Part shown: positions 5,497-58,586 of the stretch, one piece after another | How the letters are laid out: each line of letters starts with the position of its first letter | Numbering within the stretch: position 1 is the first letter of the stretch | NCBI GenBank assembly: GCA_009923445.1 | Contig: RFTN01000004.1 | Span: 2,438-66,437, forward strand | Length of the DNA stretch: 64,000 bases | DNA from: a bacterium | Lineage (GTDB): Bacteria > Patescibacteriota > Saccharimonadia > Saccharimonadales > SZUA-47 | Direction of reading: 5' to 3' | Notes under the pieces: generated by a model | Database searches by the model: none | The model's input: the letters and a program-made list of their open reading frames with translations, nothing else | What the model was told of the DNA's origin: nothing | Program-made: the position numbers and the translations under genes

Positions 5497-6399
5497 ATGG
5501 GTAAAAACGCTACAGCCAATAAACGACCTATTAAAGAGTTGGAACTTATTGCCACTAAAATACGTGAAGATATAATAATAAGTTTAGAAAAAGCCGGCTC
5601 GGGACACAGTGCTGGTCCGCTAGGTCTAGCAGATATATTTACAGCACTTTATTTTGATGTTATGAAGCATGACCCGTCAAAGCCCCTATGGGACGAACGA
5701 GATATATTGTTACTTAGCAATGGTCACTGCGCACCAGTACTCTACACAACACTCGCACATAGCGGCTATTTTGAAAAAGCCGAACTATCAACACTCCGAA
5801 AATTCGGAAGTCGTCTGCAGGGACATCCCGAACGAGAAAGGTTGCCGGGTATTGAAACTACGAGCGGACCCTTGGGCTGCGGATTGTCGCAAGCAGCTGG
5901 TATGGCTTTGGCGATGAAGATAAATAAAAATCACCACCGATGGATCTATTGTATTTTGGGCGATGGCGAACAAAACGAAGGTAATATTTGGGAAGCTGCA
6001 ATGCTCATTAACAAGTATAATTTGCATAATATTATTGCTATCACCGACCGTAACAATATTCAAATCGATGGTACAACAGAATATGTCATGCCACTTGAGG
6101 ACTTAGGGGCTAAATGGGAAGCATTCGGTTGGCACGTTATAGACATTGATGGAAACAACATAGATGCAATTATTGATGCTTGTGCAATGGCGCGCAGTAT
6201 TGTCGAAAAACCGGTCATGATTCTTGCCCATACTATTCCTGGTAAGGGAGTTGATTTTATGGAAGGTGACTATCATTGGCATGGCATGCCTGTCGGTATT
6301 GCAGATATCGCTGGCGCGCCACCTAAAAACGAGCAAGCAAAAGTAGCCCTACACGAACTCCGTACGCTCGAGGGTAAGATTCGGAGCGAGCATCAATGA
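5497..6399 (+). CDS. tkt: transketolase, N-terminal (TPP-binding) subunit
   Basis: Motifs 'GSGHSAGPLG' and 'GDGEQNEGNIWEA'. Split-gene architecture; its stop overlaps the next start. Confidence 0.9.
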   Translation: MGKNATANKRPIKELELIATKIREDIIISLEKAGSGHSAGPLGLADIFTALYFDVMKHDPSKPLWDERDILLLSNGHCAPVLYTTLAHSGYFEKAELSTLRKFGSRLQGHPERERLPGIETTSGPLGCGLSQAAGMALAMKINKNHHRWIYCILGDGEQNEGNIWEAAMLINKYNLHNIIAITDRNNIQIDGTTEYVMPLEDLGAKWEAFGWHVIDIDGNNIDAIIDACAMARSIVEKPVMILAHTIPGKGVDFMEGDYHWHGMPVGIADIAGAPPKNEQAKVALHELRTLEGKIRSEHQ

Positions 6400-10052: not shown

Positions 10053-10128
10053 ATATATAAGCAGCTTAACAGTGCTTGAGTTACCTGTGCAAGCATAAGC
10101 TTTACAGAGGAGGTAATTATAGGCTACT

Positions 10129-14342: not shown

Positions 14343-15760
14343 TGGCGAACTGGAAAACAATAGCAGAAGAAGCCGCGGATGTTGCGAGTGGTACTAACAG
14401 CGCTATAAAAAATGTTGAAAAAGCACTAAAACTTATCGAAGATAATTCCGAATACCAAGCAATTATTAACGTCATTAAAGACCGAGCGCTATATCGTGCA
14501 AAAGAAATCGATGCCAAAGTAGCTAAAGGTGAAAAAGTAGGCAGACTAGTGGGCGTGCCATTTATAGCTAAAGATAACTTTTTAACGTATGGTAGTGAAA
14601 CAACTGCAGCTAGTAATATTTTAAAAGGTTTCGAAGCGCCATATCAGTCAACTGCCATAAACAAGCTCGAAGCAGAGGGCGCAATTTGCGTAGCAAAAGC
14701 CAACCTTGACGCGTTTGCGCACGGTGGCAGTACCGAAAATAGTGATTTTTTTGTAACTAAAAATCCACTTGATAAGACTCGAGTTGCAGGCGGTAGTAGT
14801 GGTGGCTCAGCTGCCGCTGTTGCTCTCGGCTTAGCGCCTTTTGCTCTCGGGAGTGATACGGGTGGCAGTATACGCCAACCATCTAGCTTTTGTGGTGTTG
14901 TAGGCCTTAAGCCAACGTATGGATTAGTAAGTCGAAGTGGTGTTGTTGCCATGGCAAGTAGCACTGATGTTATTGGACCAATTACAACAAGCGTACAAGA
15001 TGCCGCGCTTGTACTTGACGTTATGAGCGGTACTGACCCTCTAGATAGCACGACCATTGTCAGGAACAACCAACCATACACCGTGTATAAACAACCAAAT
15101 ACTCCCAAAATTGGTGTCATTAAAGAGTATATGGACGAAGGAGTTGACCCCGAGGTTAAAAAAGTTATAGAAGAAGCAATACAGCGGCTTAAAAACGCAG
15201 GCGCCAAAATCGAATATGTGAGTTTACCCAGTTTACCGCTTGCTCTCGCCGTGTACTACATTGTTGTGCCCGCAGAGGTTAGTAGCAATTTAAGTCGCTA
15301 TGACGGACAACGATTCGGCTTCAGTGATGGTACGGCTGTTAACCTAGATGACAGTTATGAGCTTAGTCGCAGTCGCGGTTTTGGTGCAGAAGCAAAACGC
15401 CGTATTATGATCGGTACCCACGTGCTGAGTAGTGGTTACTACGATGCGTATTATAAAAAAGCACAAACTGTACGTACAAAGTTATGCCAAGAATTTACTT
15501 CCGTTTTCGAAAAAGTTGATTACTTATTGGGCCCTGTTGTGCCTGAAGTAGCGTTTAAAATTGGCGCAAACAGCGAAGATCCGCTAAAAATGTATTTGGT
15601 AGATATTATGACAGTTGCTAGTAACCTTGTCGGCGTACCAGCAATAAGTGTACCTGCAGGAACCGCGCAGGGCATGCCTGTCGGTATTCAGTTAATAGCT
15701 CCGCAACAGCATGATCTGGACCTGTTGCAACTCGCAAAATGGTACGAGGAAACAAGATGA
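14342..15760 (+). CDS. gatA: Asp/Glu-tRNA amidotransferase subunit A
   Basis: Amidase signature 'GGSSGGSAAAVA' and 'GSDTGGSIRQP'. GTG start. Confidence 0.95.
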   Translation: MANWKTIAEEAADVASGTNSAIKNVEKALKLIEDNSEYQAIINVIKDRALYRAKEIDAKVAKGEKVGRLVGVPFIAKDNFLTYGSETTAASNILKGFEAPYQSTAINKLEAEGAICVAKANLDAFAHGGSTENSDFFVTKNPLDKTRVAGGSSGGSAAAVALGLAPFALGSDTGGSIRQPSSFCGVVGLKPTYGLVSRSGVVAMASSTDVIGPITTSVQDAALVLDVMSGTDPLDSTTIVRNNQPYTVYKQPNTPKIGVIKEYMDEGVDPEVKKVIEEAIQRLKNAGAKIEYVSLPSLPLALAVYYIVVPAEVSSNLSRYDGQRFGFSDGTAVNLDDSYELSRSRGFGAEAKRRIMIGTHVLSSGYYDAYYKKAQTVRTKLCQEFTSVFEKVDYLLGPVVPEVAFKIGANSEDPLKMYLVDIMTVASNLVGVPAISVPAGTAQGMPVGIQLIAPQQHDLDLLQLAKWYEETR

Positions 15761-46079: not shown

Positions 46080-46664
46080 GTGGATAACTTTTTACCAGAT
46101 CATACTATAGATCAAATCATCACAAGTCAGCTGCATGAGAAGGATGTTGAATTTGATAGTAGGCGGCAAGCAAATAATCATTTAGATTTAGGTTACCAAG
46201 AGACTGAGTCACAGTTACGCGCACCTATTTTAAATGCCTTCAGTAAATTGTTGTTTTCAAAAAATATCGAAGTAGATTTTATAATACCCATGCCAGGTAG
46301 TGCCGTAGGCTGGATAGAAGCATTTAACAAGCTACGAGTATATTCACCCGAGATTATTTCATTGCGTAAGGTAACCCGGAGAAAATTTGAATTAATAGAT
46401 GATATAGATGAGAGTAAGTATGCTAATAAGCAAGGAATAGTGTTTGATGATACAACTATTGATGGTGGCTCGGGCGAAGCTGCGGCAGACTATTTAACTG
46501 ATAGTAAATTTGCGATCACCGCCATAGTTTCATTATTTGTCAGGGGCGAACAGCTAGCAAAAAGTAGCTATCCAAGATTTTGTATAGCGCATCGTCTTAT
46601 ACCCTCAAATCTAGACTGGAAAAAATTTAGACAACAGGGTAAAATAGAGCAGTTAAGATCCTAG
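46080..46664 (+). CDS. phosphoribosyltransferase-like protein
   Basis: 'GIVFDDTTIDGGSGEAA' resembles the PRPP-binding loop of type I PRTases. GTG start. The assignment is weak. Confidence 0.4.
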   Translation: MDNFLPDHTIDQIITSQLHEKDVEFDSRRQANNHLDLGYQETESQLRAPILNAFSKLLFSKNIEVDFIIPMPGSAVGWIEAFNKLRVYSPEIISLRKVTRRKFELIDDIDESKYANKQGIVFDDTTIDGGSGEAAADYLTDSKFAITAIVSLFVRGEQLAKSSYPRFCIAHRLIPSNLDWKKFRQQGKIEQLRS

Positions 46665-46667
46665 TTA

Positions 46668-46751
46668 GCGCGAGTGGTGGAATGGTAGACACGCATGCCT
46701 TAGGAGCATGTGCCGCAAGGTGTGAAGGTTCAAGTCCTTTCTCGCGCACCA
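46668..46751 (+). tRNA. tRNA-Leu (anticodon UAG), type II with long variable arm, CCA encoded
   Basis: Manual fold: acceptor GCGCGAG/CTCGCGC, D arm GTGG-AATGGTAGA-CACG, anticodon stem CATGC/GCATG with loop CTTAGGA, variable arm TGCCGCAAGGTGT, T arm GAAGG-TTCAAGT-CCTTT, then A-CCA. It is colinear with E. coli tRNA-Leu. Confidence 0.9.
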
Positions 46752-46760
46752 AAACAATAT

Positions 46761-46790
46761 GCCGACCTTTTTGGTCGGCTTGTTGTTTTG
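46761..46790 (+). terminator. rho-independent terminator after tRNA-Leu
   Basis: Hairpin 'gccgacc ttttt ggtcggc' followed by the T-rich tract 'ttgttgtttt'. Confidence 0.7.
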
Positions 46791-46811
46791 TCGCAAAAAG
46801 ACTTGAACCGT

Positions 46812-46906
46812 AGGGGAGTAGTGCCAGTGGCACTACGAGTAGGAGCGTCACTTGAAAACTTGTTTTCAAAGCAAGCGACGATTCTCAAGTCCTTTCTCGC
46901 GCACCA
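46812..46906 (+). repeat. structured repeat element E1, ending in a duplicate of the tRNA-Leu 3' end
   Basis: The order is 'aggggag', hairpin H1 'gtagtgcc agt ggcactac' (46818-46836), hairpin H3 'ttgaaaac tt gttttcaa' (46852-46869), 'agca', then 'tcaagtcctttctcgcgcacca'. It is homologous to the elements at 52903 and 58385. Confidence 0.7.
46885..46906 (+). repeat. 22-bp direct repeat of tRNA-Leu 3' end (att-like)
   Basis: 'tcaagtcctttctcgcgcacca' is identical to 46730-46751 (half of the T loop, the T-stem 3' strand, the acceptor 3' strand and CCA). Confidence 0.9.
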
Positions 46907-46923
46907 ATTTGACCTAGGTTTGA

Positions 46924-47784
46924 TTAGTTTGTAATTTGGGCAAAAATTAGAACCATTGTTACTACAAAGCCCGTAAACAAGTTTAGCCAAATAAAACGCC
47001 TCCAGGCACGGTTTGTTTTAAACGACTCTTTTTCAGAAACAAATAAGAATTTTTGTATGTTTATTGCATACAGTAAACCGCATAGTGCTATAACTAAGCC
47101 GCCAGTGTTTTGCGCCGCAATTATTACGGCCGCTACTATATACAACACAAAAGCAAACCGCACAGTAGTGGCTGCACCAAGCACAGTTGCTATAGATGCT
47201 ATGTTGGCCTTTTTGTCAGGAATAATATCTTGTACGGCACCAAATGCATGACTGGCCATTCCCCAAAGAAAAAACGCAGCCACAAAAGGCCATGCCGACG
47301 ATGGCCAATGCAGTAGCGAAATCGCATAAACAAGCGGACCCACAAAATGTATGCTACTGGTTATAGAGTCTAGCACGGGCCGTTCTTTAAAACGCAAATA
47401 TGCAACAGAGTAAGCCAACACAAAAAAAGTAAGAGCCAGCAGCACCAAGGCGGGCACAAGCCCCTGTGTAGCTAACAGTATCGCCAAAATAGGCACGTTA
47501 GTTATAACACAGGCCTTAATAATAGTAGGGTGAAACTGCTTTTGTTCGCGCATGCCCTCTATGCCGCCCTTGCGCGGGTTGCGTATATCTGACTCGTAAT
47601 CAAACACGTCGTTAACGCCGTACATTAGCAAGTTATAGGGGAACAAAAAATACAAAGTAGCTAGCAGCCACACGGCCGAATTGCTACCGCCGCACACTAC
47701 ATAACCAGCCGCAAAAGGGTAGGCTGTGTTTGGCCAAGAAATCGGCCGAGATACAAGAACTAATTTACGTAGAGTGTTTATCAT
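46924..47784 (-). CDS. crtEb: UbiA-family prenyltransferase, lycopene elongase-like
   Basis: Polytopic membrane protein with the UbiA Asp-rich motif 'NDVFDYESD'. It is the last gene of the crt operon, with an ATGA overlap with crtYf. Confidence 0.8.
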   Translation of the reverse strand: MINTLRKLVLVSRPISWPNTAYPFAAGYVVCGGSNSAVWLLATLYFLFPYNLLMYGVNDVFDYESDIRNPRKGGIEGMREQKQFHPTIIKACVITNVPILAILLATQGLVPALVLLALTFFVLAYSVAYLRFKERPVLDSITSSIHFVGPLVYAISLLHWPSSAWPFVAAFFLWGMASHAFGAVQDIIPDKKANIASIATVLGAATTVRFAFVLYIVAAVIIAAQNTGGLVIALCGLLYAINIQKFLFVSEKESFKTNRAWRRFIWLNLFTGFVVTMVLIFAQITN

Positions 47785-48119
47785 GATCGCTTGTCTTTGC
47801 TGGCAAATTTATTCCAAAGCGATGGCACTAGTATAGCCGCTATTACCGCATAAAAGAAATCTTCAATAGGGGCCTTACCTACATAAATACCTAGTATTTT
47901 AGAAGTGTCGTAGTCGCAGATTTTTAATGCAACAATTAGTGAGTCGAATATAGTAGTTAGTACCAGCAAACTTATAAACGTATATAGCCACGCTTTTGAG
48001 GGCTTTTTAACACGTATGCTAAACAGTAAAACAACTAGTAGCACAACGATTATGTTAAATACTAGGTACGTTTGCATACACGACTCCAGCCCGTATAAAG
48101 CACCAACGACACATAGCAC
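47781..48119 (-). CDS. crtYf: heterodimeric carotenoid cyclase subunit (small membrane protein)
   Basis: A ~100-aa, 3-TM protein with 'PIEDFFY', typical of small lycopene/C50 cyclase subunits. The likely true start is ATG at 48077. Confidence 0.7.
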   Translation of the reverse strand: MLCVVGALYGLESCMQTYLVFNIIVVLLVVLLFSIRVKKPSKAWLYTFISLLVLTTIFDSLIVALKICDYDTSKILGIYVGKAPIEDFFYAVIAAILVPSLWNKFASKDKRS

Positions 48120-48382
48120 AACAAAAATAAGAAGAACAATTCTTCAATAGGGAACTCGGGGGCGATTCTAATCGGCAGCGTATATTTGCTGCCACCATGA
48201 AAAAATATTCCAAGTGCTATACCCAGTACATCCCAAACTATAAAAACTAGCATGGTAATACCTAGTGTTTTGTAAGTTCTTTTTTTATCAAACCAAAAAG
48301 CAAGCTTATATTTTTTATCTAGCACTAACATGCCAGAAATACTTACCAGCAGCGCCAAAAGGTAGTAGAACTGTTCAATCAT
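48062..48382 (-). CDS. crtYe: heterodimeric carotenoid cyclase subunit (small membrane protein)
   Basis: A 106-aa, 3-TM protein with the 'PIEELFF' motif. Its start overlaps the crtI stop. Confidence 0.7.
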   Translation of the reverse strand: MIEQFYYLLALLVSISGMLVLDKKYKLAFWFDKKRTYKTLGITMLVFIVWDVLGIALGIFFHGGSKYTLPIRIAPEFPIEELFFLFLLCYVSLVLYTGWSRVCKRT

Positions 48383-49898
48383 GGCTGTCTACTAACCTTT
48401 CAATACTAGCAACTTGACCACCTTTTTTATTGCCCGCAATGCGCTTGTATACAAGCTCGGCACCTATGAGGCACATTGGCAGGCCAACACCTGGTACTGT
48501 GTTGCCGCCGACATAATAGAGGTTAGAGAGTTTACGACTTTTGTTGGGGGTTCTAAAAAATGCACTTTGTTTTAAAAGATGCGACTGACCAAGCATTGAA
48601 TTTTGCCATGAGTTAAACGCGCTGCCAAAATCGTTGGGGCCAAATAGGCGCTTTGTTTTAAGTCTATTTACTAAATCAACTCCTGTCATAACAGCTATTT
48701 GCTCAATATAGTGGTTGCTAAGCGACTCAAGATCGGCATCGTTAATGTCAATACTAGCCGGCAGGGGGACAAGTACAAAAACGTTTTCGCAGCCTTTGGG
48801 TGCAACTGCAGGATCTGTTTTGCTTGGCGTCGATATATAAATAGAGGCTTTTTTAGGAATAGTTTTAGTCGTGTAAATTGCATCAAAGTTATGTTGCCAT
48901 TCGTCAACAAACAATAAATTGTGATGTTCGAATTCAGGAATTTTTCCGCTTACGCCTAAGTACATTAGCAGTGCGCTTGGCCCGGGTTGCTTTTTCTTCC
49001 AATAGCTTGCATCAAAACTACGATCTTGTTTTTTAAGTAGCTTTGTTTCTGTATAATGCATATCTGCATTCGAAACTACAATATCCGCCTTAACAATACT
49101 GTCATTTTCAAGTTGCACGGCCGTAGCCTTACCCTCGCTTGATTGTATTGCGCTTACAGGGCTATTGTAGTGGTAGGTTACCGATAGTTTTTTACTCATT
49201 GCAACTAAACTTTGTATTATTGTGTAAATTCCGCCTTTGGGGTAAAAAACACCTTCTTTAAAATCAAGCGCACTCATTAGGCTGTATAGAGCCGGCGCAC
49301 TAAAAGGCGATGTTCCTAAAAACACCATAGGGTATTCTAAAATTTGCTTTAATCGTTGGTCGCTAACATAAGACGACACATAAGAGTCTATAGAGCGAGT
49401 CGTCATGCGCAGCAGGCTTGGAGCATTTTTTAGTATGTCGGTGTGAGTTAAGTCGCTAAGCGTTTCGAAATTTGTGTATAAAAAGTGCTTTAGTGACATG
49501 CGGTACATATGTTCGGACTTTTTAACATATGACTCTAGGGCGGCACCGGCACCTTTTTCTATGTGCTCAAAGGTTGCTGAGTCAGTTGCTAGGTCGCTTG
49601 TAATTGTTATGGGAGCCTTAGCTTCAAAAAATACTTTATAGGCTGGGTCTAAACGCTTTAGGCTTAACCAGTCGTCGATATTTTCGTTAAGTAAACTAAA
49701 GTAGTGTGCAAATACTTCGGGCATTAAATACCACGACGGCCCACTATCAAAAATAAACCCGTCAAGTTCAATCAGGCCGGCTCGTCCTCCAGCAGTGGGG
49801 CCTTGCTCGTACACATGTACGTCGTAGCCAGCTTTTGCAAGCAAATTTGCTGTTGCTATGCCACCAATACCTGCGCCTATTACAATAACTTTACTCAC
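48375..49898 (-). CDS. crtI: phytoene desaturase
   Basis: FAD motif 'VIVIGAGIGGIATANLLAKAG' and C-terminal 'YYVGGNTVPGVGLPMCLIGA'. The GTG start at 49898 forms a GTGA overlap with the crtB stop. Confidence 0.9.
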   Translation of the reverse strand: MSKVIVIGAGIGGIATANLLAKAGYDVHVYEQGPTAGGRAGLIELDGFIFDSGPSWYLMPEVFAHYFSLLNENIDDWLSLKRLDPAYKVFFEAKAPITITSDLATDSATFEHIEKGAGAALESYVKKSEHMYRMSLKHFLYTNFETLSDLTHTDILKNAPSLLRMTTRSIDSYVSSYVSDQRLKQILEYPMVFLGTSPFSAPALYSLMSALDFKEGVFYPKGGIYTIIQSLVAMSKKLSVTYHYNSPVSAIQSSEGKATAVQLENDSIVKADIVVSNADMHYTETKLLKKQDRSFDASYWKKKQPGPSALLMYLGVSGKIPEFEHHNLLFVDEWQHNFDAIYTTKTIPKKASIYISTPSKTDPAVAPKGCENVFVLVPLPASIDINDADLESLSNHYIEQIAVMTGVDLVNRLKTKRLFGPNDFGSAFNSWQNSMLGQSHLLKQSAFFRTPNKSRKLSNLYYVGGNTVPGVGLPMCLIGAELVYKRIAGNKKGGQVASIERLVDSHD

Positions 49899-50725
49899 CT
49901 TATAAATACTCCGCTTATTAGTATCTTTGCAAGTAGCCAAAGTTTATAAAAACTATTCAGACGCACGCGTTCGGACTTAATAGTTGATAGTGTTGCAGCG
50001 TCTAGTTTTTTAAGTAGCTTGCTGTAATAAGCATAGCTTAAGCTCACCGCTTTTTTAGACGAACGGGGCAACGTATGCAGGGCTTTAGTGGCCGTTTTAA
50101 AGTCGCTGTATATGTCTGCCGCAACGGCCTGTTTAGCGGTATCGTCAAACGTGTCATAGCTATAACCCGGAAAATAAAAGCGTTTACGCACCGTGTAGTC
50201 ATTTTGAATATCTCGCAAAAAATTAACTTTTTGAAACGCTGAACCCAATGCCCGTGCACCATGCTCAAGGTTGTTGTACATAGTTTTGTCATTTAAGGTA
50301 AATACTTTTAAGCACAACAAGCCCACAACTTCGGCTGAGCCGTAAATGTACTTGTCGTAATCTTTTTTTGAATACGTCATGGGCTGCAGATCCATACGCA
50401 TACTGTCAAAAAAGGGCGTTATTAACGACCAGCTTATATCAAATTCTTTTACAGTTACTACAAAGCTTTGAATAATTGGGTTCGTGCTGTAGTTTCTTTT
50501 AACGGCGGTGCATAGTTCGGTCTCTAACTCGTCAAGCGCATCTTTTGCGGCTACACCTTGGTAGGTGTCTACAATTTCATCGGCTATTCGTACTAAGCCA
50601 TAAATTGCATATATATGCTTGCGAACGGGTTTTGCAAACAGCTTTGAGCTTAAGCCAAACGAACTACTATAACGCAGGGTCAGTAGCCGGCTTATTTGGT
50701 ACGAAACATCATTGTATAGGTCCAT
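49895..50725 (-). CDS. crtB: phytoene synthase
   Basis: Squalene/phytoene synthase motifs 'YGLVRIADEIVD', 'YIYGSAEVVGLL' and 'AFQKVNFLRDI'. Confidence 0.9.
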   Translation of the reverse strand: MDLYNDVSYQISRLLTLRYSSSFGLSSKLFAKPVRKHIYAIYGLVRIADEIVDTYQGVAAKDALDELETELCTAVKRNYSTNPIIQSFVVTVKEFDISWSLITPFFDSMRMDLQPMTYSKKDYDKYIYGSAEVVGLLCLKVFTLNDKTMYNNLEHGARALGSAFQKVNFLRDIQNDYTVRKRFYFPGYSYDTFDDTAKQAVAADIYSDFKTATKALHTLPRSSKKAVSLSYAYYSKLLKKLDAATLSTIKSERVRLNSFYKLWLLAKILISGVFIR

Positions 50726-50728
50726 AAT

Positions 50729-51784
50729 TTAAAATTCGCGCACGGTAGATTTATTAATAAGTTCTGTAAATGCAGCTTGAGCCGATTTGTTTATGTGTAG
50801 CTGGGCTAGTGCTTGACTAGCGTTGTTTGAGTATTCTAAAACCTTGTCTTTTGCTTTTTTGTAAGCACCGCTTGCCACCAATAGGTCGCGTATAATGTCT
50901 GCCTCTTTTTCGCTACAGCTGCTATTACCAAAAATTGAATTAAATGTTGCTAAATCTTTGGCATTTGAGTTCTGGTTAAAATATTCTACTAAAATAGTCA
51001 TTTTACCCTCACGTATATCGCTTGTAGTTGATTTACCTGTTACGGCTTTGTCGCCAAATGTGCCAATAATGTCGTCGGTAAACTGAAAAGCTATGCCTAA
51101 GTTTTCGGCATACACCCGCAAAAGATCTTGCTCGCTAGTTGGAGCACCCGCCAATACGGCGCCAGTTAACAGTGGCCCTATAAAGCTATAGCTAGCAGTT
51201 TTGTATCGGGCAACTGTTGCGGTTTGAATTTCCCCAGTTGGTTTAAAAGAAATCTCGTTATCGAGTAGTTCGCCGGCGGTCACCTCAAAAATACTCGTCG
51301 ACAACAACTGTTGGCACGCGCTCAGTGTATCTTTAGAAACATGTGCCGCAAGCATCGTTTTATATGCTGCAGATATAAGCAGGTCACCACCAAGCAGTGC
51401 AGCACTCAGTGCAAAATGTTGGCGACTTTTTTCATTGGCAACAAATTGGCTATAGGTTTGGCGATAGGCGCCGTCAATGTTTGGTACACCGTAGCGCAAT
51501 GTATCGTTGTCTATAATATCGTCATGAATAAGCATACTTTGATGAATAAGCTCCTGAGAAAGCGCCAGCGGCATAACAGCGGCTATGTCGCTACCACCAT
51601 ATGCCCTATATGCTAAAAGCGTCATTTTGGGGCGTAAGCGTTTGCCACCCGAATTAACAAGCCTTTGAATTTGTAACCAAAGCAGTTCGTAGTTTGGGTG
51701 TATGGTTTTAGCACTCGCTAGCTGCTCTTCAAAAAAAAGGGCGAGTGATTCTTCGATTTTATCTTTGTGGTCATGTAAATGCAT
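50729..51784 (-). CDS. crtE: polyprenyl (geranylgeranyl) diphosphate synthase
   Basis: FARM 'LIHDDIIDND' and SARM 'FQFTDDIIG', plus 'GGKRLRP'. First gene of the crt operon. Confidence 0.85.
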   Translation of the reverse strand: MHLHDHKDKIEESLALFFEEQLASAKTIHPNYELLWLQIQRLVNSGGKRLRPKMTLLAYRAYGGSDIAAVMPLALSQELIHQSMLIHDDIIDNDTLRYGVPNIDGAYRQTYSQFVANEKSRQHFALSAALLGGDLLISAAYKTMLAAHVSKDTLSACQQLLSTSIFEVTAGELLDNEISFKPTGEIQTATVARYKTASYSFIGPLLTGAVLAGAPTSEQDLLRVYAENLGIAFQFTDDIIGTFGDKAVTGKSTTSDIREGKMTILVEYFNQNSNAKDLATFNSIFGNSSCSEKEADIIRDLLVASGAYKKAKDKVLEYSNNASQALAQLHINKSAQAAFTELINKSTVREF

Positions 51785-52803: not shown

Positions 52804-52902
52804 TACTTTTTTCATGATAAGTTTTAATTATAGCTTTTTTTATTATGTAGCTAAACCAGCACAAAGACTAAATACCGATGAACAGTAAGCATTTCTGTAG
52901 CT

Positions 52903-53058
52903 GCGGGGTGAGAAAGTCCAGTGGACTTTAGCAAGGCCGGAAACTGATTTCAAGCTTGCTTGGAGTAGGCTTGAGGCGGGGTCGCGAGTAATCGTGACTT
53001 TGCATACTTTTGCACCTGCAAAATAAAAGTATGTCGAATAGGCTAGCGAAGCAGGCCA
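52903..53058 (+). repeat. structured repeat element E2
   Basis: 'gcggggtgag', hairpin H1 'aaagtcc agt ggacttt' (52913-52929) and 'agcaagg' form the same module as E1 and E3. A possible degenerate 'gtcgaat...aggcca' end lies at 53030-53058. There is no plausible coding frame. Confidence 0.55.
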
Positions 53059-53184
53059 TCGAAAAGTGACTTCCTGATGATACTGTTGAAGCACAGCAAA
53101 TTATTGAAGAACTAGTTAGCGGGGTCATTGAATTCTATATTACAATTGAAAAAATTATGAAAGTGTTGTATTATATTATTCCTA

Positions 53185-54675
53185 ATGTTTGGTAGAAAAG
53201 ATAAGACAATTGAACAAGCACATGAATCGGTTGCGCCGATTAAGCTACCTGAAGCTCCAGAAGAACTTACACTTGCCCCTGCGAGTATAGTAACTTATGA
53301 AAATTTGGACATATCTGATGTTTATGAACAAGTACTTTCTGTAAACGGCAGCGTTAAGCTGATCAACACAAGACTGCCTCTTCCAGCAGATGACGTAACG
53401 CTTAATGTTGAGACTGACGGAGATACTTTTGACGTATATGGAACAATAAGCTTGCTAGATAAAAAACGTGCTGCAGGGGTTGTTAAAAAAGTTGCTAAGC
53501 TTATAGAGAAGTCTAGTGAAGATACGGGCGGCACTATAACTACATACAGGGATGGTTTAGACGTAAAGGATCAAAACGGAACGCGCCTCCTTATCGCTCA
53601 AGGTGCCTATTACTCGGAAAACGAAAGCATCATCGTGAGCACTGGTAAACTTAAGGATGGATACGACTCGACATTGGATGTATTTGAGTCTCCTGAGCTA
53701 ACTAAGGAGCTATTTAAAGCGACAGTAGAACAGACGCTTGGGGCAATGGCGATGGTGTTGAATGTTGCATACGCAATGGAAGAAAACCAAACTGGGCGCG
53801 AAGTTACTTTGCGCGTTGTCCAGAAAAATTCTCAAAAATTGCAAGATACAAAATCACAAGAAGAAGTTGAGCAATTGGTAAATGATGGGGCACATCCAAA
53901 GCTAACACTTGATGATATTGGTGGCCAAGCTGAAGCAAAAGAAGAGATCAAGAGTTTGGCGTACGCATTATCACACCCAGAATCATACCGAAGGTGGGGT
54001 GCACAGCCTCCTAAAGGCATACTTTTTGAAGGTCCGCCCGGCACAGGCAAGACATTATTGGCTCGTGTAGTGGCGTCAGAGGCAGATGCTTCGTTCTTCC
54101 CAGTATCGGTAGCAGATGTTACTTCTAAGTGGTATGGCGACTCTGAAAAAAAGATCAAACGAATATTCGAACAAGCAGCCCGAGCAGAGAAGGCTATTAT
54201 ATATTTTGACGAACTTGATGCTTTATCGCCATCGCGCAACAGCTCTCACGAGGCAACGAGTCGCGTAGTCAGCATAATCTTGCAGTGTATGGACGGGTTC
54301 CTAGCTAAAGGAAATGTGTTTGTTATTGCATCGACAAATAATGCAGATAAGATAGATGAAGCATTACTTCGTACTGGCCGCTTTGATAGGAAAATATACA
54401 TAGGTTTGCCGGATAGTGAAGCACGCAAATCTATCTTTAACATACATATGAAAAAAGCATGCGAAACAGCAGATAGACAACTATTCGATGAGATTGATCT
54501 TGACGAACTTGCTGAGGCCGCAGAAGGAATAAGTGGTGCGGATATTAAGGAAATGGTAAGAAGAACGCTCGAACAAAAAGTGCGTACAGAAATGATTTCT
54601 AAACAGGCGAATGACAACCCTGTCACTACACAGGATATATTGAATCAGCTATCTGCTTACAAAAAGATAAATTGA
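53185..54675 (+). CDS. AAA+ ATPase (classic FtsH/CDC48-type AAA module) with uncharacterised ~240-aa N-terminal domain
   Basis: Walker A 'GPPGTGKTLLAR', Walker B 'IIYFDELDAL' and a second region of homology 'ASTNNADKIDEALLRTGRFDRKIYI'. The N-terminal half has no recognisable motif. Confidence 0.8.
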   Translation: MFGRKDKTIEQAHESVAPIKLPEAPEELTLAPASIVTYENLDISDVYEQVLSVNGSVKLINTRLPLPADDVTLNVETDGDTFDVYGTISLLDKKRAAGVVKKVAKLIEKSSEDTGGTITTYRDGLDVKDQNGTRLLIAQGAYYSENESIIVSTGKLKDGYDSTLDVFESPELTKELFKATVEQTLGAMAMVLNVAYAMEENQTGREVTLRVVQKNSQKLQDTKSQEEVEQLVNDGAHPKLTLDDIGGQAEAKEEIKSLAYALSHPESYRRWGAQPPKGILFEGPPGTGKTLLARVVASEADASFFPVSVADVTSKWYGDSEKKIKRIFEQAARAEKAIIYFDELDALSPSRNSSHEATSRVVSIILQCMDGFLAKGNVFVIASTNNADKIDEALLRTGRFDRKIYIGLPDSEARKSIFNIHMKKACETADRQLFDEIDLDELAEAAEGISGADIKEMVRRTLEQKVRTEMISKQANDNPVTTQDILNQLSAYKKIN

Positions 54676-54800
54676 CCTTTAACATAGGGTTAAATTACGG
54701 TTTTGTATCGTGCATCAGATAAGAATAATCTTAAACTTGTTACTCCTGAACCTACGCTAAGTAATAACGTACTGATAGGTAATAATGTATTTGCTACTTC

Positions 54801-54941
54801 ACAAAGCCCGAAAACAAGTTTAGCCAAATAAAACGCCTCCAGGCAGGGTTTGTTTTAAGCGACTCTTTTTCATAAACAAGTAAGTTCTTTGAATGTATGT
54901 TAGTTGCGTTATAAAACTATGGGTTAAGCGGAAAATACGTA
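54801..54941. repeat. composite ghost junction: copy of crtEb 3' end fused to copy of crtE upstream flank
   Basis: 54801-54880 matches 46964-47043 (76/80 by manual alignment). 54878-54941 matches 51819-51879 with gaps. The switch point is at 'aagtaagttcttt'. Confidence 0.85.
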
Positions 54942-55513
54942 ACGTTTGCATCATGAAAAGGGAAGGCGTTCCAGCTTGGGCAGCTTTGGTGTACTAAATG
55001 GTCAAAAACATCCTCTGGTGTTTGGGGCCCCTGCATATGTTTAGGCAGCCAAGAGCTTGTCAGGGTAAATAAATCGCCGTGTTGGTTAAGTGGTACCAGT
55101 CCTACACCGTGCGGCTCGCTGTCAGGGCTGTATATGATATTTTGTTCTAGATCGTGCTCTTCGGTTGCGTCTATATCTAGTATTACGCCGTACCCATTTT
55201 TAACCATATGACGTAGTAGCTTACAAAAACTTTTCTCGCTTGATTCGTTGGCAAAGCCAAGGTCACGCCAAGAATCTAGCCCAATATCTGTCGCTATCAT
55301 GTTCATTGCAACGGTCATAAGGCTATTTTTACGATGTTTAGTAAGGTGTGCAGACTCGTCAATTGCACAAAACCCAACGTATGCAAGATACGACTCTGTG
55401 CTAACTTCGTTAGTACTAAGCCTATCGAAGGCCGTTGGGTAACACACCGGCAAGGGAGCGTCCGGTCCGGTTAACCCCTTGCGCACTTTGTCTTGGTAGC
55501 TTTGCTCACTCAT
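54917..55513 (-). CDS. hypothetical protein (198 aa)
   Basis: Intact ORF with no confident motif. Its last codons ('...PLNP*') lie inside the repeat, which also occurs, degraded, upstream of crtE. Confidence 0.5.
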   Translation of the reverse strand: MSEQSYQDKVRKGLTGPDAPLPVCYPTAFDRLSTNEVSTESYLAYVGFCAIDESAHLTKHRKNSLMTVAMNMIATDIGLDSWRDLGFANESSEKSFCKLLRHMVKNGYGVILDIDATEEHDLEQNIIYSPDSEPHGVGLVPLNQHGDLFTLTSSWLPKHMQGPQTPEDVFDHLVHQSCPSWNAFPFHDANVTYFPLNP

Positions 55514-55572
55514 ATAGAATGAGACAGATTATCTGTTAGTTTACGTTTTTATGCAAGGTATTAACCGGTTTG

Positions 55573-55610
55573 TTAGGCAAAAAACTGTATAAACAACCAG
55601 GTGGAAGGGC
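55573..55610. repeat. degraded copy R1 of the DUF2177 gene 3' end
   Basis: 'ttaggcaaaaaactgtataaacaaccaggtggaagggc' compared with 61472-61509 gives about 33/38 identical. Confidence 0.5.
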
Positions 55611-55636
55611 ACCGGGTTCTGGTCTCATCGTTCGTA

Positions 55637-55664
55637 GGTTTAAATTCCTTATCCTCAGCCAAAT
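55637..55664 (+). repeat. tRNA-3'-end-like motif, copy a
   Basis: 'ggtttaaattccttatcctcagccaaat' has a T-loop-like segment followed by '...CCNCAGCCAAAT'. Confidence 0.5.
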
Positions 55665-55773
55665 TGATTATTCAGCTAATACAACCAAACCTCATATCTG
55701 GAAGTTGAAAAGTTCGAATACCCTTATCTCCTAGGAAAAGTTACTCATTCCTGACTCAAAACCAAAAAACCCG

Positions 55774-55802
55774 TTGACATAAAGTTAATCTTTAGTTAAA
55801 CT
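55774..55802 (+). promoter_or_regulatory. putative promoter of the Phd/RelE operon (leaderless transcript predicted)
   Basis: TTGACA (55774-55779), a 17-nt spacer, then TAAACT (55797-55802). The ATG at 55809 is 7 nt downstream of the -10. The spacer contains the near-palindrome 'aagttaatctttagttaaactt'. Confidence 0.55.
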
Positions 55803-55808
55803 TAGTGC

Positions 55809-56036
55809 ATGAGTACAAATAAATCTGTTAGCCTTAAAGAACTACGCGAACAGTTCCCTAAGTATATTGAAGCTATTTCTAAGGGACAAAGCTTTACGGT
55901 AGTTAAACGATCAAAACCTATTTTTCAGTTAAACCCAATCAGTGACGAAGGCGATTGGCAAACTATTGCTGATTTTACTACCATCGAAGATAATGGCGTT
56001 AAAGCTGAAGATGTACTGGCAGTACTAGAGGCATAA
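55809..56036 (+). CDS. type II antitoxin, Phd/YefM family
   Basis: 75 aa. 'VSLKELREQFPKYIEAISKGQSFTVVKRSKPIF' is typical of the Phd/YefM N-terminal fold. Confidence 0.75.
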   Translation: MSTNKSVSLKELREQFPKYIEAISKGQSFTVVKRSKPIFQLNPISDEGDWQTIADFTTIEDNGVKAEDVLAVLEA

Positions 56037-56042
56037 TTTATT

Positions 56043-56288
56043 ATGGCTGATAAGATAAAAAAGCTTTTAGCCAAACTTAAATCTCAAGAGCGTGAATTAG
56101 TTAAGTTGTTGATATTGCGAGTCAAATTAGACGATACCCTAGGGCTAGATATTAAGCAACTAAAAGGTCATTCTGATCTTTTTAGAGTACGAAAGGGAAG
56201 GTTAAGAATTGTATTTAGAAAAGATGCAAACAGCTTTTTAATTGTAAGAATAGACCGCCGGAACGAAAAAACTTACAAAGATCTTTAA
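56043..56288 (+). CDS. type II toxin, RelE/ParE superfamily
   Basis: 81 aa. 'LKGHSDLFRVRKGRLRIVFRKDANSFLIVRIDRRNEKTY' matches the RelE/ParE core pattern. It lies 7 nt after the antitoxin gene. Confidence 0.75.
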   Translation: MADKIKKLLAKLKSQERELVKLLILRVKLDDTLGLDIKQLKGHSDLFRVRKGRLRIVFRKDANSFLIVRIDRRNEKTYKDL

Positions 56289-56304
56289 AACAAGTTCAGC
56301 CAGG

Positions 56305-56339
<35 letters not shown>

Positions 56340-56346
56340 CTACAAA

Positions 56347-56374
56347 AGTTAGAATCCATCATCCCCAGCCAAAT
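56347..56374 (+). repeat. tRNA-3'-end-like motif, copy b
   Basis: 'agttagaatccatcatccccagccaaat'. Confidence 0.55.
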
Positions 56375-56540
56375 TTGTTTTATAGTATTTTCATCTGTTA
56401 TTTCGGTTTTGATTTTTCGGTTATTGTGAAATAATTCAATCATTTGTAAAATCCTTATCTTTTAATTAAGTTCGAATCCTTTATGCCCTTTTACGGCTAC
56501 CCATATATATGCTTAAGTAAAAATCTGCTAATATAATCCT

Positions 56541-56690
56541 ATGAAGAAATATGATTTTTTAATTCTATTAGTAGTTTCAGCGTTTTTCGGATTTTTTATA
56601 GCAACAGCAAAAGACAGGGCTAGGTATGTTATTTCGATCTTACCCGTAATCGCTGTAATCATTTTAGCTTTTAGACAGAGAAAGAGTTAA
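56541..56690 (+). CDS. possible small hydrophobic peptide (49 aa)
   Basis: 'MKKYDFLILLVVSAFFGFFIATAKDRARYVISILPVIAVIILAFRQRKS' has two predicted TM segments. It is below the track's size cutoff and has no clear RBS. Confidence 0.3.
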   Translation: MKKYDFLILLVVSAFFGFFIATAKDRARYVISILPVIAVIILAFRQRKS

Positions 56691-56849
56691 GGTAAGTTCT
56701 TCTAGAGATCCATTCCTTTAGTATTGCTGTCGGACTAGCGTGTCTTAACTAGAAAGCACCGTTCCATCGGGATACTTTCTTATTAATAGTCATCACAGTC
56801 CGTCATTATGGTTTCCTTTTTCAAACATTGTGAAGAAGTTCATGAACTT

Positions 56850-56903
56850 GTAAATCCTCATCTGTAAAAGTTCCATTAACGTCCTGCCTCCCCGGCCAAA
56901 TTG
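56850..56903 (+). repeat. tRNA-3'-end-like motif, long variant, copy d
   Basis: 'gtaaatcctcatc|tgtaaaagttccattaacgtcctgcct|ccccggccaaattg' is the same ends as the short copies, with a 27-nt internal segment. Confidence 0.7.
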
Positions 56904-57035
56904 AATTTCAACTAGTCCACCAAACTTTCTTATATGCTGATGTTTTGTTGTTTTTTAATTATGATCAGTGAGCTACCTATATAGGTAATGCCTTATATTG
57001 AAACTTTGTATAGTTACTGATATACTTATAAAGTT

Positions 57036-57947
57036 ATGAACTACCAAGAATATCTAAAATCAATCATTAAAGCGTCAGGCTGGTCTCAGGAGCAACTTGC
57101 ATCGCAATTGGGCGTAACTTTCGTAACTGTAAATTCCTGGATAAATAGTAGATCTAAACCCAGAGCAAAAGCACTGGTACGTATAGAAAAACTCTATTTC
57201 GACACTGTTGGTACCGAAACGGTAGATACTAATATACTCGCTAAGCTAAAAGCTCAGGCCCTAAAGAGCAAAATTACCCCTCAGCAGCTAGTAAGCAACA
57301 AAGAATTACTTGATAAACTAACACTTTACTTAACCTATCATACGAATACTATCGAAGGTAGTACTATGACATTATCTGATGTCGGGGATGTTATCTTTGA
57401 TCGCAAAGTATTGTCTAACCGCACGGCAATTGAACAGGCAGAGGCACGCAACCACCAGGCAACACTCCATTGGTTAATAGATTTACTAAATCAAGATAAA
57501 AAATTAGTAATAAGCGAAGGACTTATATTAGATACCCATTTGCGACTTATGAATGGAATTATTAGTGATGCCGGTAAATACCGTAACCATGCAGTTAGGA
57601 TTCTAGGCTCGAGGGTGGTATTGGCAAACCATTTAAAAGTTCCTGAACTTGTTAAGGAACTTAGTGGGGACGATTCGCTAAAGTACGATCTGATCTCCAA
57701 ACTAGCTCGAACACATGCACAATTTGAGCAGATTCACCCTTTTAGCGATGGCAACGGTCGAACGGGTAGATTGATCATGCTTATTCAGGCCCTAATTGAC
57801 AGTAAGGTTCCGCCCCTAGTGCGTAAAGAACGCAAGTTTGCATACTATAAGGTCCTTGAAATTGCTCAAACAAAAGGTATTTATGAGCCTCTAGAATTAT
57901 TTATTGCTGAATCTATGTTATTTAGTAACGAGCTCCTCAGTAGTTAA
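57036..57947 (+). CDS. Fic-domain protein with N-terminal XRE-type HTH
   Basis: HTH 'SGWSQEQLASQLGVTFVTVNSWINSRSKP', Fic motif 'HPFSDGNGRTGRL' and an upstream 'TNTIEGS' (S/TxxxEG-type) helix. Confidence 0.85.
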   Translation: MNYQEYLKSIIKASGWSQEQLASQLGVTFVTVNSWINSRSKPRAKALVRIEKLYFDTVGTETVDTNILAKLKAQALKSKITPQQLVSNKELLDKLTLYLTYHTNTIEGSTMTLSDVGDVIFDRKVLSNRTAIEQAEARNHQATLHWLIDLLNQDKKLVISEGLILDTHLRLMNGIISDAGKYRNHAVRILGSRVVLANHLKVPELVKELSGDDSLKYDLISKLARTHAQFEQIHPFSDGNGRTGRLIMLIQALIDSKVPPLVRKERKFAYYKVLEIAQTKGIYEPLELFIAESMLFSNELLSS

Positions 57948-58011
57948 AGAGCCGTCTTCCGTAGAGTCATCGAGCAGTTTCTGGATTTCTTCTATATCAT
58001 CAACGTTCAGA

Positions 58012-58060
58012 AGATCCTCATCTGTAAAAGTTCCATTTACGTTCTGCCTCCCCAGCCAAG
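58012..58060 (+). repeat. tRNA-3'-end-like motif, long variant, copy e
   Basis: 'agatcctcatctgtaaaagttccatttacgttctgcctccccagccaag' has about 43/46 identity with copy d. Confidence 0.7.
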
Positions 58061-58105
58061 CATAAGCATTATACACACAACGAAATTTATGCTAGTCTAA
58101 AACAC

Positions 58106-58282
58106 ATGAAAGAAAACATCCCTACTCCAGATTCTAATGCTACGTCAGAAAATATTACTGATTCCATCGAAGCTCAAAGTTTACCGCTAATAAGACTTAT
58201 CCCTTTACCTAGGACATTGGCGCTTGGTGAGCAGATGGAGCCTGGAGTTGCTTATACTCCTCGCATTACTATTCCAAGATAA
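58106..58282 (+). CDS. possible small protein (58 aa)
   Basis: 'MKENIPTPDSNATSENITDSIEAQSLPLIRLIPLPRTLALGEQMEPGVAYTPRITIPR'. It is followed by a strong terminator and is below the track cutoff. Confidence 0.3.
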   Translation: MKENIPTPDSNATSENITDSIEAQSLPLIRLIPLPRTLALGEQMEPGVAYTPRITIPR

Positions 58283-58304
58283 AGTTGCGAAGTACGTCTA
58301 CTAA

Positions 58305-58317
58305 GGGCAGCCAAATT
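58305..58317 (+). repeat. tRNA-3'-end-like motif, short copy g
   Basis: 'gggcagccaaatt' lies directly before the terminator hairpin. Confidence 0.4.
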
Positions 58318-58345
58318 AAAAACCGTCCGTTTGGGCGGTTTTTAA
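58317..58345. terminator. bidirectional rho-independent terminator
   Basis: 'aaaaaccgtcc gttt gggcggttttt' has an A tract, a GC hairpin and a T tract. Confidence 0.75.
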
Positions 58346-58384
58346 TTTGCTTGAGTTGGAGGATTCGAATTCCGAGTGAGCATT

Positions 58385-58499
58385 CGGGGTGAAAACTGCC
58401 AGTGGCAGTTTGCAAGGCAATCTTCACTTGCAAACTAGTTTGCAAAGCAGAAGTTGCGGGCCTGCAGGATGCAGGTCGAATCCCTCATCCCCGGCCAGA
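58385..58499 (+). repeat. structured repeat element E3, ending in tRNA-3'-end-like motif (copy f)
   Basis: The order is 'cggggtga', H1 'aaactgcc agt ggcagttt' (58393-58411), H2 'ttgcaag...cttgcaa', H3 'ttgcaaac ta gtttgcaa', 'agca', then '...ggtcgaatccctcatccccggcca'. Confidence 0.7.
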
Positions 58500-58586
58500 T
58501 GCAACAGCAGAATCTCAGACCCAAGACCCTTAGCTGGTGCGCATAGAACTGTCATGACATTCTTGAGCAACTAGATAAGCTAATTG

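Follow-up and report, generated by a model that had tools for sequence, protein, structure and literature searches.

Several described systems place DNA inside or beside tRNA genes and other stem-loops. A direct repeat running from the T-loop to the CCA end of a tRNA gene is a known signature of tRNA-targeting integrases that act at the T-loop sublocation; archaeal tRNA introns and split tRNAs, with their bulge-helix-bulge structures, are proposed to transpose between positions; and stem-loops serve as targets for group IIC introns (at terminators) and for IS1397, ISKpn1 and IS110-family insertion sequences (at repetitive extragenic palindromic, REP, hairpins). We know of no hairpin-targeting mobile element that regenerates its target by partial duplication. 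Here we examined a tRNA-Leu(UAG) locus from a member of the Saccharibacteria, ultra-small epibionts with genomes of ~1 Mb, within a 64,000-nucleotide (nt) stretch of contig RFTN01000004.1 (hereafter the window), in which the tRNA gene is followed by a 133-nt insert and by a second, exact copy of its own 3′ end. The insert holds a degenerate copy of a three-hairpin module, here called M, and the reading that we favour, to which we give an even chance, is that the insert and one of the repeats together represent a worn copy of a mobile cassette that is miniature, non-coding and non-autonomous, regenerates the tRNA and is widespread in Saccharibacteria. The parts of the element, in window coordinates, are as follows.

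46668–46751, plus strand: intact tRNA-Leu(UAG) with encoded CCA (ARAGORN; Rfam RF00005, 58.6 bits)
46730–46752, plus strand: first copy of the direct repeat, tRNA position 55 through CCA and one further A (23 nt at 100% identity with copy 2)
46727–46809, no strand: long imperfect palindrome made of the tRNA 3′ part, the terminator and an inverted tRNA 3′ part (14 nt at 93% complementary)
46750–46790, no strand: bidirectional intrinsic-terminator hairpin (G+C stem 46761–46779; A/T-rich extended arms 46750–46767 and 46773–46790)
46796–46809, plus strand: inverted T-arm copy, AAAAGACTTGAACC (inverted-repeat search)
46815–46884, plus strand: degenerate module M (hairpin A 46818–46836; hairpin B ~46846–46880 with a CUUG loop; hairpin C missing)
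46885–46907, plus strand: second copy of the direct repeat, a tRNA-Leu 3′ end (position 55 through CCA and A) that was displaced or duplicated (exact-repeat search)

The 22-mer TCAAGTCCTTTCTCGCGCACCA was present exactly twice in the window (46730–46751 and 46885–46906), with identity extending to 23 nt from tRNA position 55, the second T of the T-loop, and no further copies were found in the window at up to three mismatches. We ruled out a chance origin (0 of 100 shuffles contained even one match) and an assembly artefact, as 263 nt around the repeats were identical in three assemblies of the organism, one of them from a different assembler, and homologous units occurred in dozens of independent metagenomes. 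The preliminary description of this DNA, made from the sequence alone, had reported a 22-nt duplicate of the tRNA-Leu 3′ end separated from the gene by a terminator and a structured segment; the duplicate is real, and the terminator hairpin followed by further hairpins was confirmed. That description had overlooked the palindrome, which is centred on the terminator loop, and the inverted T-arm. After the inverted T-arm, a G-rich stretch can pair with the 3′ strand of the T-stem, and hairpins A and B and repeat copy 2 come next. Copy 2, read by hand, showed no T-arm or acceptor pairing, neither ARAGORN nor Rfam identified a second tRNA, a transfer-messenger RNA or a tRNA-like gene on either strand, and the tRNA-Leu (anticodon TAG) was the sole tRNA called by ARAGORN in the window.

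A covariance model of the module, R1, matched the insert at 46806–46897 (51.3 bits, E = 1.7e-11), with the 19 model positions of hairpin C reduced to 2 nt, and the M of the insert aligned with 49 other copies. The consensus is ~86 nt long (TGAGAA...GTGAC) and forms three hairpins, namely A, B with a CUUG loop, and C with a conserved G·U pair and a triloop, which are closed by a stem taken from the host sequence. Compensatory changes were found at 16 of the 28 pairs in the 50-copy alignment, cells were paired in 97.5% of cases compared with 30–51% when the partners were slid, and double-change cells numbered 243 compared with 12–30 in controls. Slid and shuffled controls thus scored far below M, as is the case for a structured RNA whose secondary structure is supported by compensatory change. 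One G·U pair on the plus strand was kept in 42 of 50 copies, while the junction hairpin alternated between UUC[GCAA]GGA and UUCG[GAAA]CGAA, such that the GNRA variants GCAA and GAAA swapped together with their stems. The GNRA and CUUG loops and the plus-strand G·U pairs suggest that M is selected as RNA, or as a folded plus strand. No Rfam 15 family matched M in the window or in four full-copy loci (E up to 5–10), where the only matches were to tRNA, and full-text literature searches returned no publication describing the element; the M family is apparently undescribed and unusual. A 7-nt likeness to loop A of the hairpin ribozyme (GAGAAGU), noticed by eye, was dropped as RF00173 gave no match.

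The distribution of M was narrow by lineage and broad by tRNA. A search pattern based on the shared hairpins had seven matches among 185,579 species genomes, all of them in Candidatus Saccharibacteria metagenome-assembled genomes (MAGs) and no two beside the same tRNA, and it also matched 57 metagenome contigs. These matches yielded ~65 true modules; the 45 located within 260 nt of a tRNA were without exception on its strand, with 18 anticodons represented. Besides the 3 copies in the window, R1 recovered 82 from related loci totalling 357 kb, and M turned up solely in Saccharibacteria MAGs and metagenome contigs; the tyrosyl-tRNA synthetase (TyrRS) of the window likewise grouped with Saccharibacteria/Patescibacteria. 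Within its family the copy at tRNA-Leu(UAG) is a degenerate and ordinary member, and no autonomous relative was seen among the loci examined.

M always followed ...RGG and replaced one or two loop bases. Most copies were located in the T-loop of a tRNA sequence, right after G53, and several of those upstream of a tRNA gene were in the D-loop or on the 3′ side of the D-stem. Other copies occupied the loops of non-tRNA, terminator-like hairpins (loci L030, L037 and L058), a repeated hairpin between pth and dprA (L016, L019, L045 and L061), or hairpin C of another M, in which they were nested (five loci: L016, L024, L032, L043 and L068). M units adjoined intact tRNAs of at least 18 anticodons. 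When M was removed in silico from ~70 copies, there was no convincing case of a complete tRNA that had been interrupted, and the only ARAGORN calls were two lenient ones, both on partial copies; the host sequences are therefore partial tRNA copies, since removing M restores no complete tRNA.

Two arrangements accounted for the tRNA-adjacent copies. In the downstream type (~25 loci), the order was tRNA, terminator, inverted tRNA copy, short spacer, tRNA positions 44–53, M and tRNA positions 56–76, with M beginning 63–82 nt past the tRNA end. Positions 44–53 matched mostly at 10/10 and positions 56–76 mostly at 21/21, and the 3′ flank reproduced the final 21–22 nt of the tRNA beside it, in most cases without a mismatch (21/21 or 22/22). 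The inverted copy was more diverged (75–80%), spanned tRNA positions ~45–67 and sometimes reached 76, and was specific to the cognate tRNA in nearly all downstream-type loci. In the upstream type (~13 loci), tRNA positions 1–53 (or 1–25) were followed by M, the next 10–12 nt of the tRNA, an inverted T-arm-like stretch and the real tRNA, which began 42–51 nt after M in T-loop copies; D-loop copies had ~17–28 nt of tRNA after M instead of 10–12. The unit was thus found beside other tRNAs, as the preliminary description had proposed to look for, and in every case the duplicated 3′ end was that of the adjoining tRNA.

We also scored tRNA duplication independently of M, on loci most of which had been gathered with the M-specific pattern, so that the locus frequencies are biased. 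A downstream copy of at least the last 17 nt of the tRNA was present at 32 of 72 unique tRNA loci, starting 153–176 nt beyond the tRNA in 27 of the 32, and an upstream copy of its first 17 nt at 12 of 75. The inverted-arm score was higher where a downstream copy was present (19.6) than where it was absent (13.3) or in shuffled sequence (11.6). Overall, the duplications comprised 17–25 nt or more of the tRNA 3′ end, or 25–62 nt of its 5′ part.

The slot between the inverted T-arm and the copy of the last 17–22 nt of the tRNA was in some loci filled by structured inserts of ~80–110 nt that R1 did not recognize (L012 3571–3770; L013 1101–1290 and 1439–1620; L026; L036 1828–2010). These adjoined Ser-GCT, Leu-CAG, Val, Phe, His and Gly-TCC genes, and some had the common motifs GCTTGGCYGAGCGAG or CAGCTTTAGCTG. 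Given these shared motifs, further module families probably exist.

Compared with tRNA-targeting integrative elements, the M unit similarly regenerates the tRNA, leaves the displaced T-loop-to-CCA segment (21–23 nt) as a direct repeat at its far end and has variable DNA beyond; in the window, a 23-nt direct repeat flanks the insert and the tRNA is intact. It differs in that the insert is only ~133–155 nt with no integrase within 64 kb, in that the same layout occurs at 18 or more anticodons, in D-loops (with duplication of the 5′ part) and in non-tRNA hairpins, such that specificity for one tRNA and one sublocation was not observed, and in that a structured module lies exactly in a loop and is accompanied by an inverted tRNA 3′ half. 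The preliminary description had offered, as one possibility, that almost the whole of an island had been deleted, and a tyrosine-integrase island or prophage that entered the T-loop of tRNA-Leu and was later reduced to 133 nt would indeed leave both the direct repeat with its sublocation signature and an intact tRNA, as attL and attR. No integrase, transposase or reverse transcriptase (RT) domain was found by Pfam in any open reading frame (ORF) of at least 150 aa in the window, and random deletion of large islands is disfavoured because the ~155-nt layout recurs at stereotyped spacing beside the many anticodons, in a family of constant size with members in D-loops and non-tRNA hairpins. The pattern for M had no match in IMG/VR, where the 22-mer had one match, which was not beside a tRNA. 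We therefore regard a deletion scar as very unlikely and already largely refuted. The repeat is a real footprint of a tRNA-regenerating insertion, with the attL/attR topology that the preliminary description had captured.

The one IMG/VR match to the 22-mer belonged to a run of 24 identical nt (CTCAAGTCCTTTCTCGCGCACCAA) shared with the second repeat and its flanks, at 10111–10134 of L005 (IMGVR_UViG_3300033074_001989). It lay inside a tail-like ORF on a high-GC viral contig with no tRNA nearby, and its length is improbable by chance. As a candidate phage attP it was rejected and taken as a coincidence.

The alternative offered in the preliminary description, that the insert is a non-autonomous passenger resembling a miniature inverted-repeat transposable element (MITE) and using the tRNA att site, held in part. 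The insert belongs to a multi-copy family by its covariance-model score and its members adjoin tRNAs; neither the hallmarks of MITEs nor att use specific to tRNA-Leu was found, and the core of the passenger is, unlike in that earlier picture, a covarying RNA-type structure in the T-loop of a partial tRNA copy. M shares with MITEs, with REP sequences and bacterial interspersed mosaic elements (BIMEs), with Rickettsia palindromic elements and with Correia and RUP elements that it is short, non-coding, multi-copy and lineage-restricted, with nested and decaying copies, and like repeats of the MITE and REP type it can sit within RNA-gene sequences. It is unlike them in its three strongly covarying hairpins, GNRA and CUUG loops and strand-specific G·U pairs, and in targeting hairpin loops with a direct and inverted partial duplication that regenerates the target. 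M has no inverted repeats at its ends (TGAGAA... and ...GTGAC), the arms of the unit instead copying the local tRNA, and the lengths of the duplications given above do not correspond to a short target-site duplication of fixed length. Archaeal tRNA introns resemble M in placing related structured inserts at the D-loop and T-loop of many tRNAs; M is bacterial, its interrupted copies are always partial and have an uninterrupted tRNA adjoining, with no evident requirement for splicing, and interruption of a complete tRNA was not seen in ~70 copies. Group IIC introns and the hairpin-targeting IS share with M the stem-loop target, including the use of terminator hairpins, and differ from it in encoding their own enzyme and being far larger.

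A small non-autonomous cassette is favoured because no recombinase, transposase or RT was found in the 64 kb, the size is tiny and constant, and the unit recurs at many tRNAs, D-loops and non-tRNA hairpins. We infer that such a cassette moves in trans through an intermediate, with M acting as RNA or as a folded plus strand during the spread, and what follows on its mode of movement and the enzyme used is put forward in the same conditional sense. M would land in a hairpin loop, mostly in the T-loop after G53 and sometimes in a D-loop, in the loop of a terminator or within hairpin C of another M, and its insertion would be coupled to a partial duplication that restores the interrupted gene. For the downstream form, the tRNA would be completed by newly supplied positions 56–76 with a terminator, and its original 3′ end would come to lie ~155 nt farther on, behind an inverted tRNA 3′ half and joined to M and to 10 nt of T-stem. 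This outcome could arise by a Campbell-type single crossover between the tRNA gene and a small intermediate, circular or rod-like, that carries M along with part of a tRNA, or with the same result by replicative template switching, with two switches at the terminator palindrome. No duplicate lacking M was found, so that duplication and module seem to go together. Several features of the copies suggest mobility: they may be nested, truncated or degenerate (the window copy, a remnant in L061, and the downstream copies in L014 and L015), M at the same tRNA-Gly is downstream in L013 and in an upstream D-loop copy in L023, one relative has extra units at tRNA-Leu(UAG) compared with another (L008 and L010, below), M in non-tRNA hairpin loops keeps the partial-duplication layout (L030, L037, L058, L045 and L061), and the contigs of close relatives break at the locus. 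If this reading is true, Saccharibacteria carry dozens of copies of an undescribed structured element at about half of sampled tRNA loci with no tRNA broken, which would provide a new model for how a non-coding element can safely target essential genes through target regeneration by partial duplication. It would also explain the assembly breaks at tRNA loci in these MAGs, and such units can mislead predictors of att sites and islands. If the family is as it appears, R1 is a covariance model ready for annotation.

Other observations weigh against a mobile cassette. We found no enzyme that could act in trans, no excised form and no clean pair of empty and filled sites with flanks >97% identical, so that mobility is argued from the pattern of the copies, and terminal inverted repeats and a short target-site duplication of the MITE type are absent. 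L012 and L035 were 88.6% identical over 3 kb and 73–90% in flanking coding DNA; from the tRNA to the end of the copy there were 6 differences in 270 nt, with 93–100% identity per 60-nt window, and purifying selection on a host function would explain this conservation no less readily than recent spread would. Two tRNA-Gly genes differed at acceptor pair 7:66 and each downstream copy had the base of its own tRNA, as was also the case for tRNA-Glu, and copies that track their own tRNA's substitutions also fit a function that needs tRNA identity. The slot may moreover count more than M, given that unrelated inserts of similar length occupy it.

These observations bear on the main rival explanation, that each unit encodes a host-functional, tRNA-linked non-coding RNA, a mimic of a tRNA 3′ half of ~115 nt. 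Such an RNA would consist of the three-hairpin module on the cognate T-stem and would end in the acceptor 3′ strand, the discriminator base and CCA; it might, for example, draw off proteins that bind or cleave tRNA, in the manner of a decoy or sponge, or might instead be a primer or a charged RNA resembling a minihelix. It would account for whole units that are better conserved than the flanking genes, for copies that follow their own tRNA's substitutions while the M copies at those tRNA-Gly and tRNA-Glu loci differ from each other by compensatory substitutions, for the stereotyped spacing and the frequency of the 3′ copy among tRNA loci, for the RNA-type loops and conserved plus-strand G·U pairs, and for unrelated modules in the same slot. 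It accounts poorly for the many degenerate, truncated and nested copies, including the copy in the window without hairpin C, and for the M copies whose setting provides no CCA end, namely those in D-loops of partial 5′ copies and those in non-tRNA hairpins. Downstream units are behind a strong terminator with no recognizable promoter; by eye, a TTGAAC within the inverted arm in the window was not accompanied by a suitable −10 element at the appropriate distance. In L030 and L037, M lies antisense to every gene around it, and one unit in the window is an orphan with no tRNA gene nearby. The inverted arm is in decay, and where it departs from the copy there was no wobble compensation on the plus strand, as the outer palindrome had 9 A·C and 2 G·T mismatches there; selection on the plus strand for pairing of the outer palindrome was accordingly not seen. 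On balance we consider a host RNA unlikely while taking it seriously, and if true it would mean that a functional mimic of tRNA ends adds a new layer to tRNA biology in the Candidate Phyla Radiation. A bolder proposal, which we likewise hold to be doubtful, is that the conserved structured module found beside about half of these Saccharibacteria's tRNA genes, set in the T-loop of a partial tRNA copy that runs to the acceptor 3′ strand and CCA, belongs to a new class of RNA, which would be either tRNA-3′-half mimics acting in tRNA metabolism or defence, or a ribozyme-like element that inserts itself by way of RNA hairpin loops and becomes fixed in DNA with its target regenerated.

We compared the tRNA-Leu(UAG) locus among relatives, as the preliminary description had advised. 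A search for the orthologous locus in GTDB genomes through the phosphoribosyltransferase-like (PRTase-like) gene upstream of the tRNA found no relatives, and among the contigs of eight homologues of that gene, two (L008 and L010) had a tRNA-Leu(UAG) downstream with a sequence identical to that in the window. In L008 the tRNA is followed by a terminator, an inverted T-arm, hairpins, CAAGTCCTTTCTCGCGCACCA and a second terminator, and then by a second unit; upstream of it, the same hairpin module interrupts a partial copy of the tRNA-Leu 5′ part. L010 has one downstream unit of a different kind and lacks the upstream unit. The three loci thus differ in the number and type of units, in genomes that are distant from each other, and the contigs of closer relatives break at this point; because the units of L008 and L010 differ, we take the locus to be polymorphic and the unit to recur. 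Comparison of L008 with L010 showed that the native upstream flank of tRNA-Leu remains with the interrupted copy, and the inserted DNA therefore supplies the fresh tRNA 5′ part.

Three side observations concern these contigs. The contigs L007 (at 1340–1460) and L008 (at 1100–1165) are 99.4% identical and differ by a ~35-nt duplication-inversion-duplication just upstream of the interrupted tRNA-Leu copy; this is a genuine rearrangement by template switching, as proposed for the units, or else an artefact of MEGAHIT assembly. The closest available relatives, with TyrRS 83% (GCA_043759925.1) and 73% identical, are represented by L075 and L078, which share synteny from the PBP gene to rsmD and end (at 6295–6319 and 14555–14686, respectively) where the PRTase, tRNA-Leu and repeat region begins; these contig ends suggest that the repeat family breaks short-read assemblies. 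The 194-aa protein encoded directly upstream of the tRNA (46080–46664) had 8 homologues in 5.8 billion proteins and no NCBIfam match, and is a rare, lineage-specific and PRTase-like protein, the homologues giving a weak phosphoribosyltransferase (PF00156) signal.

DNA beyond the copy varied between related loci. Homology between L012 and L035 dropped to 55% right past the copy's CCA, and in L042 and L059, with flanks 99.5% identical, the DNA directly after the copy was swapped, with 225 nt in one and ~480 nt with a HIT-like ORF in the other. In L069, two 197-nt repeats composed of M and a tRNA-Lys fragment flanked 3.2 kb of toxin-antitoxin-like genes, without an integrase. Such exchanges would be expected if M were a DNA recombination site comparable to integron attC, at which cassettes are exchanged beside tRNA genes through folded DNA by a recombinase encoded elsewhere, with the tRNA-end repeat as the crossover core, and the M copies around two gene blocks of the window would fit as well. 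M units resemble attC sites and gene cassettes in being structured, imperfectly palindromic and non-coding and in bordering swapped DNA. M is unlike attC in being conserved in sequence as well as in structure and in having tRNA-derived arms in its unit, and no IntI-type integrase with attI was found in the window or the loci examined, nor any recombinase near an examined unit. M also occurs in D-loops and within other M, its GNRA and CUUG loops indicate folding of RNA rather than DNA, and variable DNA beside tRNA genes is common for other reasons. We judge an attC-like site improbable.

The remaining features of the window that bear on the family are listed here.

46924–47784, minus strand: UbiA-family prenyltransferase, the last crt gene and convergent neighbour of the element, outside it (PF01040; NF009608, 377 bits)
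52900–53010, plus strand: third, diverged M copy in a non-tRNA context (R1, 32.7 bits, E = 1e-06)
58314–58497, plus strand: second family unit, with no tRNA gene adjoining (R1, 101.2 bits, E = 2.2e-24)

The preliminary description had the crt operon begin after the second repeat; the gene 18 nt downstream is instead on the minus strand and is the last of its cluster. This convergence raises the further alternative that the element acts on the minus strand, as the 3′ untranslated region of a crt transcript that ends at the bidirectional terminator and whose 22 nt complementary to the tRNA-Leu 3′ end form an antisense or tRNA-binding segment. The bias in the outer palindrome is in the direction that this would predict, as A·C mismatches on the plus strand are G·U pairs on the minus strand (9 compared with 2). 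The conserved G·U pairs of M are on the plus strand, units always follow the strand of the tRNA, as every module located within 260 nt of a tRNA shares its strand, and elsewhere the downstream genes vary in identity and orientation while the layout is constant, all of which leaves a minus-strand RNA the least credible of the explanations weighed here.

The unit at 58314–58497 carries a full-length M (R1 match 58381–58487, module proper from 58390) between a terminator (~58314–58348) with an inverted T-arm (58358–58373) and the tRNA-like 3′ end TCGAATCCCTCATCCCCGGCCA (58476–58497). It is an orphan, and before the terminator there is only a possible remnant, ...GGGCAGCCA. Between the M copies at 52900–53010 and 58381–58487 is an accessory-looking block (52900–58500) that includes an AAA ATPase (53185–54675), a helix-turn-helix and Fic/DOC protein (57036–57947) and several ORFs without a Pfam match, and in which GC content falls to 0.32 at 56–57 kb. 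This block resembles the toxin-antitoxin block between the two M repeats of L069.

The crt block is also located between two M copies, and its composition showed no sign of foreign origin, with GC content flat and not distinct. The cluster (46924–51784, minus strand) encodes a polyprenyl synthase, a phytoene-synthase family protein, CrtI, two lycopene-cyclase-domain proteins of ~100 aa each and the UbiA prenyltransferase, in the gene set and order of actinobacterial C50-carotenoid clusters. Carotenoid synthesis is unexpected in such a reduced epibiont, and the cluster sits in a genome of Saccharibacteria type.

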